A stretch of DNA of 64,000 nt, from assembly GCA_964609585.1 (NCBI GenBank), contig CAZSRA010000005.1:2502-66501 (forward strand), read 5' to 3'. This document shows, in pieces, positions 16,908 to 20,784 of the stretch. The first letter of the stretch is position 1. Every line of letters begins with the position of its first letter. A program made the position numbers and the translations under genes. Under the pieces are notes generated by a model. The model searched no databases. It had not been told where the DNA came from and saw nothing but the letters and a program-made list of their open reading frames with translations. The DNA comes from an uncultured Candidatus Saccharimonadales bacterium. Lineage in GTDB: Bacteria > Patescibacteriota > Saccharimonadia > UBA4664.

Positions 16908-17282
16908 ATTTGTGCCTTTTTACTGACTGTATAGTACTTATGCTTGCCGATAAGTACAATAGGCGAAAAGAGCAACCTTGAGGTCATGCTCATTGGGGAC
17001 ATACAAAAAGCCCCTGTGGATGGGGCTTTTTGGAGTAACTTGTCCCGGCAGTATAGCGAGACCAATACTTATCCAGCTTTGTTCGGCGCACTTGCGTCCG
17101 ACGATGGTCATCATCAGCGAACTTCGTCAGATGAAGACTTAAAAGACAACTCCTAAGTCTAAGGGCGACATATGCAGATGCACATGTCGCCCGTCGAGTG
17201 CCCTCAATGAGGCACGGATGCGTTATTTAGTTTTTCATTATTCGAGGATTGCCTCCAGTTCAAGATTGTCGGCGGCGCCGGC

Positions 17283-20200
17283 TCAGGGTGCAGAACTCAC
17301 ACGCCAGAGTGTTACTTGTCCCTCGAAGCCGACCGCCGTCTCGACCTTAGTGGATCGAGCCAGGAGGGCCTGAGTCGGGGCGTCCAAGCTGCTCAGGCTG
17401 TTCGTGTCACTGGTGTAGGTCATAATCCAGCGCACTTTGCCCGCGCACTGAGTTGTCTGCCACTGGATGTCGCACCACGGCTGAGAAATCTCGTTGCCGA
17501 TAGTGACTTCCGTCAGGACGACGTCCTGGGTCGGCACATACTCCTGCGCCAGTGTGGCTGCGACGCCGATAGCGTTGTCCTTGTGATCGACGATTCGCCA
17601 CCAAAAGCCACCGAGGTTGAGTGCTCCGATGAGAACGACCGCGACCATCGGGACCAGTCTCCGCCTGGCAGTAGTGCCGCGAAGCCAGCCGGTAACTTCC
17701 GCCGCCAGGTAGACATACAGGGGCACGAGCACGAGCTCGAAGTAGCTCGGGTAGCGGAGCTTGATCGCCCCGAACCCAATCACGGCGGCCGTGGCCCAGG
17801 CAAACAGCACCTGGTTATCTCTGACGGGCTGGAAGCTGCGTCTCATCAGACACTGCACCCAGCGGACCGCCATCACCGTGACACCGGAGGTCGCGACCAG
17901 GATCGAACCCACGAAGATCCGGTATTGATCGAACAACGGGCCGATGAGTTGGCCTGTGCTGTTAATAGAGCCACGACGAGCACCGGTTGCATTCCCGAAG
18001 GTCCGCTGCACCTGCTGCCCCATCTCCCCCCAGAACTGGCCGTACGCCGGGTTGAGCAGGGTCATGACCAGCAGATACCCCGTCACGATCGTAAGAGCGG
18101 TGGCGAAGAACTGGATGTGGTGGCGGTGGTACTTCCGGAAAATGAGCCAGCTTATTGCTGCCGCCAGCAGAACATAGGCGTCGGTGTGTTTGAACACCAC
18201 CGCCATACCCGCGGCAGCTCCGGCCAGAATGAACTGACCAGGAGTTGGGCGCTGTACTGCACGCCAGTAGAGCCACATGGCGGCGGTCACAAACACGATG
18301 GCAGTGTTCTCCATCCACCCGATGCGGTTGGCGTAGATCATCCAGCTATCGGTAGCGAGAAGCCCCGCGGTCACAAGCGCCGGCCTTGAGCCGATCGCTC
18401 GCCGCATGAAAGCCCAGAGCAGCAGGAGGGCCACCAGCGAGGTCGCCGCAGCAAGCCACCTGGCGGCGGCGATACCGGTTTGACCGACCAACTTGTCCCA
18501 CCCGGCCAGCTCCCAGAAGTAGAACGGAGGCTGGTAGAAGAAGGTTGAGACATGGTCGGCATAGTCGGGCCGACTCGCGAGGCGTCCTCCAGAGAGGAGG
18601 TTCCGTGCGATGGCCGAGTAGGCCGTCTCGTCCCAGATGAATCCGGGCCGGTTGTTGATGTTCCAGAAGCGCAAGAGCGCGGCGATGCCGAGGACTCCGA
18701 TGAGGGAAATCGACTCTCGACTCGCGAACTTACGACGCTTCCTTTTCGCACTTGATGGAGATGACATCATCCCTTCCTTTCCGGGTAGACTTGACGTCCC
18801 CCGCTTGATGTGGAGTCCGTGGAAGATCCCGAGGGTGAAAATCGACCCCAGAAACAGGGTAAGGAACGGGTAGAAGAACGCCTCCGGGCGCTTATTCTTC
18901 CGCACCTCAACTGATCCGAGGACTATAGCCGCCCCACTTGCCGCTCCTCCACCGACCAGGTCGGCTGAGGAGCCCAGTGCCGTCACGATGACAGCGATAG
19001 CCACCATCGATGCAGCCGAAGCCAGCACCAAAAGCGACTGCCGGGAGCGTCGCCTTGCGAACATGCTGTCGCGGTGTCGAACGATAAAGTCCGAACAACC
19101 TTGACCACCCCTCATGTACTCGCGGACAACGCCACGGAACCCCTTCCCGTGATCGTGGCCGCAAGTTAGAGCAGGAGCGAACCTGATACCGAACCCCTCC
19201 TTCGCGATCCGATAGAACCACTCGTAGTCCTCGTAGGATCGCTTCATGGAGACATCGGGGCCACCCACCGCCTCGAACACCGCGCGCGTGATGAACGCGT
19301 TGGCCGTCGTCGGAGGCTTGCAGCCGCGTCCGCCGAACGTGCTTGCGTCGAGCGTATACGGCTTGGGTACCCTGAGGGTCTTGGCGCCGAACACGTTGTG
19401 ATCCATGTACCGGCACCAGAAATCGCTGCCGAGCGAGTAAACGCCCCCGCCGACGCACTGCCACTCGCCGCTCAGCATCTCGCTGACGCCAGTGGCAATC
19501 CAATCTTGGGGCGGGATCGTGTCGCTGTCGGTTAGCGCGAAGATCTCACCCTTCGCGTTACTCAGTCCGGTGGTTCGTTTGACGTTGGCGTCACGCCCGG
19601 GGCCTGACGCATCCACCTCGAGGGTTCGGATGCGCGGGTCACTCTGGAGATCGCCGAGAGCTTCCCACGTCGGGTCGTTTATATCCCCGACAAGGATGAC
19701 TTCAGTCCTCCCGCCGTACTCTTGGTTCAGCAACGAGCTAACAGTCGCACGGATAGTGCGGCCGCTGCCCAAGCTGCCCTTTACTGGAATGACCACGCTC
19801 ACAAACGGCAGCGTGTGGATCGTCCCTCCATCTTGAGGATCCTGATTGTTGGTCACGTCGGACGTATCCGGACGACTCTCTTCGGGACCCATCGCCGATA
19901 GCCGAGCCGGGAAGGCCCAGAAGTGGCAGACGACGTAGTTGATCGCGGTGAAGATGGCGGTCGTTGCGAGCGCTGCCACAAGGTACTCCATGCCCAGCTT
20001 GATCAGGACGAAGTAAATCGCCTGGTTAACCGGAATGGTGACCACTCTCATGAGGTGGAATCGCCAAAAACTGACCCGGAAGCGGCTCTGCCGCTTCCTC
20101 CAGGTGAGCCTCCAGTTCAGGAAGAAGCTCGTCTCGATCGAGAGGAACCCCTGCAGAAAGAAGGCCGCCTGCTGTCCGAGATGGAGCCAGTGGACCTCAA

Positions 20201-20408
20201 AGTACAGACCGCCGACGCCGAACACGAACACGAGAGCGCCGATGAGGCTGAAGCTAGTGAGCGCAGCCTGGTGACGCCTGTACAGCTCTTGGACACTTCT
20301 GGGCACTTTGCCCTCCAGGTACGTTCTCCAAAGCTGGAACAACTTGGTCGACATGAAGACTGTCACCCTTCTTGGTCTTGAACGAATGATTTTGAACCTA
20401 CAAAACAA
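17283..20408 (-). CDS. tripartite fusion glycosyltransferase: GtrA-like flippase domain, GT2 polyprenyl-phosphate sugar synthase domain, and GT39/PMT_2 (ArnT/PMT-like GT-C) membrane domain
   Basis: N-terminal GtrA-like 4-TM region (VNQAIYFVLIKLG). Central GT2 region with VSVVIPVKG and the DXD motif ALTDSDTIPPQDW. C-terminal multi-TM region with the GT-C loop motif FIWDETAYSAIARNLL and FYQPPFYFW. GC is about 66%. An alternative start is MSTKLF at nt 20354. Confidence 0.75.
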   Translation of the reverse strand: MFCRFKIIRSRPRRVTVFMSTKLFQLWRTYLEGKVPRSVQELYRRHQAALTSFSLIGALVFVFGVGGLYFEVHWLHLGQQAAFFLQGFLSIETSFFLNWRLTWRKRQSRFRVSFWRFHLMRVVTIPVNQAIYFVLIKLGMEYLVAALATTAIFTAINYVVCHFWAFPARLSAMGPEESRPDTSDVTNNQDPQDGGTIHTLPFVSVVIPVKGSLGSGRTIRATVSSLLNQEYGGRTEVILVGDINDPTWEALGDLQSDPRIRTLEVDASGPGRDANVKRTTGLSNAKGEIFALTDSDTIPPQDWIATGVSEMLSGEWQCVGGGVYSLGSDFWCRYMDHNVFGAKTLRVPKPYTLDASTFGGRGCKPPTTANAFITRAVFEAVGGPDVSMKRSYEDYEWFYRIAKEGFGIRFAPALTCGHDHGKGFRGVVREYMRGGQGCSDFIVRHRDSMFARRRSRQSLLVLASAASMVAIAVIVTALGSSADLVGGGAASGAAIVLGSVEVRKNKRPEAFFYPFLTLFLGSIFTLGIFHGLHIKRGTSSLPGKEGMMSSPSSAKRKRRKFASRESISLIGVLGIAALLRFWNINNRPGFIWDETAYSAIARNLLSGGRLASRPDYADHVSTFFYQPPFYFWELAGWDKLVGQTGIAAARWLAAATSLVALLLLWAFMRRAIGSRPALVTAGLLATDSWMIYANRIGWMENTAIVFVTAAMWLYWRAVQRPTPGQFILAGAAAGMAVVFKHTDAYVLLAAAISWLIFRKYHRHHIQFFATALTIVTGYLLVMTLLNPAYGQFWGEMGQQVQRTFGNATGARRGSINSTGQLIGPLFDQYRIFVGSILVATSGVTVMAVRWVQCLMRRSFQPVRDNQVLFAWATAAVIGFGAIKLRYPSYFELVLVPLYVYLAAEVTGWLRGTTARRRLVPMVAVVLIGALNLGGFWWRIVDHKDNAIGVAATLAQEYVPTQDVVLTEVTIGNEISQPWCDIQWQTTQCAGKVRWIMTYTSDTNSLSSLDAPTQALLARSTKVETAVGFEGQVTLWRVSSAP

Positions 20409-20698
20409 AGATTATCCCCGTAGCAGGGATATCCTCATCTCTTTGTTCTTTTATCATAAAAAGTCTAAATTGTCAAAGAGGGAGATACGTCCGAAAATTG
20501 GCCTGAATGGTTATGCTTGCCCGTTCCTTAAGCCAAACGTAATATTGTTCATACCATTGATCGTACATTTTAATTCGGTGAGTGCCCGAGATTAGAAAAG
20601 CCCTTGCATCGCTAAATACTGTTCGTGTCAGCACAAAGTTGGCGGCAACTCTTATTTGCGTTATCGGACTCATTGTATATTTTCGAGGAATAATTCAT

Positions 20699-20784
20699 TG
20701 GTGCGCGAGAGAGGAGTCGAACCTCCACACCCTTGCGGGCACTAGAACCTGAATCTAGCGTGTCTACCATTCCACCACTCGCGC
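20699..20784 (-). tRNA. tRNA-Leu (anticodon CAG), type II, CCA encoded
   Basis: The reverse complement GCGCGAGTGGTGGAATGGTAGACACGCTAGATTCAGGTTCTAGTGCCCGCAAGGGTGTGGAGGTTCGACTCCTCTCTCGCGCACCA has anticodon stem CTAGA/TCTAG with loop TTCAGGT. It is a paralogue of the tRNA at 5832-5915 and shares the same 3' flank ATGAATTAT. Confidence 0.85.

Follow-up and report, generated by a model that had tools for sequence, protein, structure and literature searches.

A subset of bacterial glycosylation proteins, represented here by a gene of an uncultured Candidatus Saccharimonadales bacterium, combines in one polypeptide a GtrA/DPMS-type helical bundle, a hyaluronan-synthase (HAS)-like GT2 glycosyltransferase (GT2b below) and an ArnT/PMT_2-type GT-C glycosyltransferase with a DE motif. 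This protein, encoded in the 64,000-nucleotide stretch of DNA that we analysed (the window), holds the membrane-bound steps of lipid-linked extracytoplasmic glycosylation; the enzyme that normally makes the lipid-linked donor is absent from the fusion, so that the single polypeptide does not house the entire pathway. The best explanation of the whole, which we consider about as likely as not, is that the three-module fusion acts with a separate GT2 (GT2a below), that GT2b extends a lipid-linked sugar and that the GT-C module transfers the product outside.

Gene and domain architecture

The sequence-only reading had given a 1041-aa ORF at 17283-20408 on the minus strand, and the mechanical ORF is exactly this when read from a TTG start; the ATG at 20354 is probably the true start and yields a 1023-aa protein. 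An identical 1023-aa product is on record (sources NCBI and Logan; longest contig 72,650 bp), and we read the same product on a 5,066-bp Logan contig. An ORF of this length (3.1 kb) whose three domain matches have E-values of 1e-11 to 3.5e-20 is far beyond chance. Its features, with residues in 1023-aa numbering, are:

17283..20354, minus strand: CDS of the fusion protein (ATG start, TGA stop, 1023 aa)
19911..20252, minus strand: GtrA/DPMS-type four-helix TM domain, residues 35-148 (PF04138, 5mlz, four AF2 helices)
19818..19925, minus strand: acidic/polar linker between GtrA and GT2, residues 144-179 (pLDDT < 50 and sequence)
19104..19802, minus strand: GT2b catalytic GT-A domain, residues 185-417 (VSVVIPVKG, DSD, YEDY, REYMRGG)
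19521-19529, minus strand: DSD motif of GT2b
19224-19235, minus strand: YEDY motif of GT2b
19104-19124, minus strand: REYMRGG, at the QxxRW position of GT2b
18792..19139, minus strand: interface helix and three hydrophobic helices of GT2b, residues 406-521
18711..18806, minus strand: K/R-rich cytoplasmic linker from the GT2b module to the GT-C, residues 517-548 (pLDDT < 50 at 521-533)
17589..18755, minus strand: GT-C transmembrane glycosyltransferase domain, residues 534-922 (PMT_2, PMT, Foldseek)
18627-18635, minus strand: WDE motif in the first outer loop of the GT-C
17295..17570, minus strand: C-terminal alpha/beta domain of about 90 residues, 929-1020 (AF2 secondary structure)

In a Pfam profile scan, in 1041-aa numbering and with all matches above the gathering score, we recovered GtrA_DPMS_TM (PF04138) at 53-166 (45.5 bits against a cut-off of 26.1), Glycos_transf_2 at 204-379 (50.4 bits), Glyco_tranf_2_3 at 203-435 (44.9 bits), PMT_2 (PF13231) at 626-783 (73.3 bits) and PMT (PF02366) at 574-755 (38.5 bits). 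These matches bear out the order GtrA, GT2, GT-C that had been proposed without domain searches. The GtrA assignment is further upheld by a match to the homologous TM domain of P. furiosus DPMS (5mlz, E 8.3e-6), an enzyme in which a GT2 and a GtrA-like bundle are naturally fused. All the motifs named earlier are present, in 1023-aa numbering: VSVVIPVKG at 185-193, DSD at 276-278 and WDE at 574-576 followed by Y579. The full-length AF2 model has a pLDDT of 78, and that of the GT2 module a pLDDT of 88.7 and a pTM of 0.87. D227, D255, D276/D278, E375-D376 and R415 of GT2b and D575, E576 and Y579 of the GT-C are invariant among homologs. Helices 406-521 of GT2b probably comprise two membrane crossings and interfacial helices, and the linker at 517-548 is the site of a stop-start junction in relatives. 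The C-terminal alpha/beta domain, also kept in homologs, is presumably extracytoplasmic.

Affinities of the GT2 and GT-C modules

GT2b displays a GT-A domain, interface helices and TM helices together with the D, DxD and ED motifs, and is a membrane-integrated GT2 whose fold is HAS/PcManGT-like and whose D...DxD...ED active site lies on the cytoplasmic side. Its best fold match is HAS, a processive synthase, with PcManGT nearly as good. When a profile of the full module was searched against the PDB, many GT2s matched, but only over their generic nucleotide-binding half, and a sequence-profile search with the acceptor half found no match there. In an NCBIfam scan its neighbours were MftF, EpsD, PgaC, AglG, TuaG and NodC, with no match to the ArnC, GtrB or PpgS models; since the NCBIfam scores of both GT2a and GT2b lie far below the curated cut-offs, these resemblances are to be read at the family level only. 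Close relatives of GT2b carry the JGI label ExoA. At the QxxRW position the sequence is R-E-Y-M-R-G-G (411-417), wherein the Trp of Q(Q/R)xRW is replaced by Gly and is variable in the family (ExxRx), in a register set by eye rather than by structural alignment. This Trp stacks on the acceptor sugar in processive synthases, and the ED general-base motif is typical of transfer to a sugar hydroxyl. Compared with class I HAS (8snc, 8smm), PcManGT (6yv7) and BcsA (4p00), GT2b lacks the QxxRW Trp and has fewer TM helices, and none of those enzymes shows the fusion to GtrA and GT-C.

The GT-C half has the TM core of PMT/PMT_2 proteins, including a DE motif in loop 1, and its Foldseek matches (ArnT 5f15, STT3, AglB, Pmt4 9i5k and ALG9/12) corroborate the GT-C assignment. 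The label 'GT39/PMT-type' given to it earlier stands at the level of the Pfam PMT_2 family but goes no further. Eukaryotic PMTs have a luminal MIR domain between TM helices, whereas no MIR domain was detected in the fusion protein (Pfam scan, E<=1). As, in addition, Pmt4 matches no better than ArnT or STT3, with ArnT among the best structural matches, this half is best filed as a PMT_2/ArnT-like GT-C rather than a bona fide GT39 PMT. A further resemblance to the ArnC/ArnEF/ArnT pathway lies in an ArnC-like GT2a and a UDP-sugar dehydrogenase in related operons; however, equivalents of ArnA, ArnB and ArnD were not seen here, and this host is not known to have a lipid A target.

Fused and unfused relatives and their operon partners

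The fusion has collinear counterparts in 20 or more distant protein clusters (30-40% identity), which come from Actinomycetota, Ktedonobacterales and Saccharibacteria, and 16 homologs from a word index show the same Pfam set. The 230 clusters (at 50% identity) that reach E<=1e-30 include full triple fusions (P0043, P0045, P0047 and P0012) as well as GtrA-GT2b, GT2b alone and GT-C alone; relatives have the three membrane modules either on separate genes or fused in pairs. Dozens of further clusters have a fused GtrA-GT2 junction, with linkers alignable across homologs, and long forms of the family carry the GT2b module duplicated in tandem. In S. soli GT2a, GtrA, GT2b and GT-C are four adjacent genes, and in Conexibacter-type loci GT2b and GT-C lie in one frame, separated only by 'TAG ATG' or 'TAA ATG'.

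The separate GT2a, nearest to the PpgS, AglJ, Dol-P-hexose transferase, ArnC and PgfS models of NCBIfam, adjoins gtrA in unfused operons and also adjoins triple fusions; it is retained at 9 of the 22 genome loci, as well as in L030 and L031. Other operon partners in relatives are a UDP-Glc/GDP-Man dehydrogenase, polysaccharide lyases (PF14099, Hepar_II_III_C) and GH113, which suggest that the surface glycan contains uronic acid. None of GT2a, the dehydrogenase, GH113 or the lyases was found within the 64-kb window or beside the Ktedonobacterales copies. In high-GC loci we also noticed recurrent clusters of minus-strand 'neighbour' ORFs, most of which have no Pfam match and are probably shadow ORFs.

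The tRNA-Leu locus

Three features flank the gene:

20699..20784, minus strand: tRNA-Leu(CAG), the last conserved element of the syntenic block
20413..20431, minus strand: small terminator-like hairpin with a T-rich tail in the interval between the tRNA and the gene start (z = -3.55), immediately upstream of the TTG start
17163..17192, minus strand: terminator-like hairpin (stem of 13 bp, loop of 4 nt), 90 nt past the stop codon

The last of these had been reported as a palindrome and indeed folds as such, the surrounding 76-nt stretch having a dG of -36.9 kcal/mol (z = -6.0 against shuffles). The distance of about 290 bp to the 3' end of the tRNA is correct from the TTG (290 nt; 344 nt from the ATG), but the end of the gene nearest the tRNA is its 5' end. 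Three related Saccharibacteria contigs share the block UvrC...SBP_bac_5-tRNA-Leu(CAG) and then diverge right after the tRNA; none of them has the fusion gene at this locus, and in our window it is the first gene of the variable region that starts at the tRNA 3' end. The adjacency to tRNA-Leu, to which the sequence-only reading had drawn attention, is thus a real synteny breakpoint, and the absence of the gene from this site in the three relatives makes its horizontal acquisition by the Saccharibacteria host plausible. However, we found no att-like direct repeat of the tRNA 3' end and no integrase or transposase among the neighbours, which include a histidine kinase and binding proteins, so that a classic integrative island lacks support. 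A GC content of about 66%, distinct from the flanks, had also been claimed. The gene does exceed its 3-kb flanks (51.8% and 51.6%) by about 8.5 points, but its GC is 60.3% (GC3 76%) and it is no outlier within the window, lying only 1.1 sd above the mean (56.0%, sd 3.8%), with 12% of equal-sized windows as GC-rich and 4 of 28 other genes equal or higher in GC3, which makes GC a weak island signal. A neighbour-joining tree of the GT-C part was star-like, with 59% support, and yields no donor lineage.

Proposed mechanism and closest known systems

The architecture, fold classes, intact motifs, neighbourhood and fusion pattern and synteny break are observed, whereas the horizontal transfer is putative, as are the substrates, the GtrA role and the order of steps that follow. 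A separately encoded small GT2a, PpgS/AglJ/ArnC-like, would load a sugar onto polyprenyl phosphate and may dock on the GtrA-type bundle. GT2b, using an NDP-sugar and its ED general base, would then add a further sugar on the inner side of the membrane, either to the lipid-linked sugar made by GT2a or to another lipid-linked acceptor. The GtrA bundle would help the lipid-linked glycan cross the membrane, and the GT-C would transfer it to a cell-envelope acceptor outside. In genomes without an adjacent GT2a, GT2b itself might load the polyprenyl phosphate.

The order AglJ, AglG, AglB of Haloferax N-glycosylation, in which AglJ adds the first sugar to Dol-P and AglG adds a sugar to Dol-P-Glc, is by analogy the closest counterpart of these proposed steps: GT2a is AglJ-like and GT2b weakly AglG-like, and a GT-C would then transfer the lipid-monophosphate-linked glycan. 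The scores, however, are far below the equivalog cut-offs, the GT-C here is PMT_2/ArnT-like rather than STT3/AglB-like, and the present protein is bacterial and fused. In Mycobacterium tuberculosis PpgS (Rv3631), the GtrA-like Rv3632 and the GT-C Rv3779 form a galactosamine pathway. The GT2a of the related operons is closest to PpgS (model NF058614), being small, without TM helices and beside a GtrA-type gene and a GT-C; the mycobacterial system, though, is not known to include a GT2b-type enzyme or a fusion. Rv3632 reportedly stimulates PpgS, with which the docking role suggested for the GtrA bundle would fit. The O-antigen glucosylation systems of Shigella and Salmonella phages (GtrA/GtrB/Gtr*, the last also GtrC) and the Gram-positive systems CsbB/GtcA/YfhO and GtlA/GtcA/GtlB (PMC7389260, PMC8035078, PMC11127046) likewise pair a GtrA-family 4-TM protein with a GT-C acting outside in extracytoplasmic glycosylation via a lipid-linked sugar. 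In contrast to the present fusion they are three separate proteins, and their GT2 is a polyprenyl-phosphate sugar synthase of the GtrB/CsbB type instead of a HAS/PcManGT-like enzyme; in relatives of the fusion the GtrB-like enzyme, GT2a, is encoded apart as a fourth protein. We found no described GtrA-GT2-GT-C fusion in the literature, and two reviews name no fused forms (PMC11127046, PMC8035078). The Actinoplanes gsf cluster (PMC13390465) initially appeared similar, but its GtrA is separate and its two GT2s have no predicted TM helices, and we treat it as an analogue only.

Alternative interpretations

The sequence-only reading had seen a whole GtrABC-like route in the protein, with the GT2 making a polyprenyl-P-sugar from an NDP-sugar, GtrA flipping it and the GT-C transferring it. 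The fusion of this GT2 to GtrA and GT-C, both associated with lipid-linked sugars, in many lineages, the solitary gene without a GT2a nearby in the window and on Ktedonobacterales contigs, and the precedent of P. furiosus DPMS speak for such a route. We nonetheless consider it quite improbable: a GtrA 4-TM domain and a multi-spanning GT-C with an acidic loop-1 motif are present, but a GtrB/CsbB/ArnC/DPMS-type GT2 is not, and we reject a GtrB-type identity because the neighbours in fold and sequence are HAS, PcManGT, BcsA, MftF, EpsD and AglG rather than DPMS, GtrB or ArnC. Moreover, GT2b retains the invariant ED general base, a distinct GT2a adjoins gtrA in unfused operons and triple fusions, and the tandem duplication of GT2b fits successive additions better than donor synthesis. 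HAS as the best fold match also fits a polymer synthase, wherein a processive HAS/cellulose-synthase-like GT2b and the GtrA helices would form a path for a uronic-acid polysaccharide that the GT-C, acting outside with a lipid-linked sugar made by GT2a, would decorate or anchor. In class I HAS, too, TM helices precede the GT domain, and dehydrogenase, lyases and GH113 are typical of synthase systems. This interpretation is unlikely, as the QxxRW Trp is not kept, there are probably no more than about two membrane crossings after the GT domain, PcManGT, a non-channel enzyme, matches almost as well as HAS, and both the ExoA label and the resemblance to AglG point to single additions on lipid-linked acceptors.

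Another proposal, which taken as a whole we regard as doubtful, is a self-contained modular assembly line, a single-polypeptide synthase-translocase-ligase: a short glycan would be assembled directly on polyprenyl phosphate by one or more HAS-like GT2b modules, the covalently attached GtrA bundle would serve for lipid binding and translocation instead of a free-standing flippase, and en bloc transfer outside would fall to the GT-C, a scheme that would also cover the longer relatives with two GT2b modules. If true, such an assembly line in a Saccharibacteria epibiont, acquired from the high-GC Gram-positive lineages on which these organisms live, would shape the surface by which the two associate. 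That the gene is a decaying passenger, gained without partners and non-functional or being lost, could be argued from the lack of GT2a, dehydrogenase, hydrolase or lyase within 64 kb and from its place in a variable region and its absence from three related genomes; with an intact ORF of 1023 aa, every family-invariant catalytic residue kept and a terminator-like hairpin of its own, this is very unlikely. Finally, as only a stop codon divides GT2b and GT-C in some relatives, an error at one base could make them look fused, and the two sources of the exact window protein may derive from the same reads. Such a merge of adjacent genes by sequencing or assembly error is, however, exceedingly improbable, since the collinear distant clusters come from different samples and phyla with the same uninterrupted architecture, and the widely fused GtrA-GT2 junction and alignable linkers speak against it as well. 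The fusion is accordingly genuine, as had been supposed.

Implications

GtrA is needed in many bacterial surface-glycosylation systems, where it may act as a flippase or as a membrane partner of the GT2. The repeated covalent fusion of GtrA to one particular class of GT2 and to a GT-C is a Rosetta-stone argument for their working as a single physical machine, and makes a one-gene construct available for biochemistry or cryo-EM. Under the preferred reading, with a separate GT2a and a GT2b that extends a lipid-linked sugar, the family extends the textbook three-component scheme by a second, HAS-like GT2, with which bacteria could, like archaea with their Agl pathway, make oligosaccharides linked to lipid monophosphate. 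Saccharibacteria live as epibionts on Actinomycetota, and the occurrence of the fusion in one of their reduced genomes, at a variable site linked to a tRNA, suggests that envelope-glycan genes are exchanged between Saccharibacteria and high-GC Gram-positive lineages.

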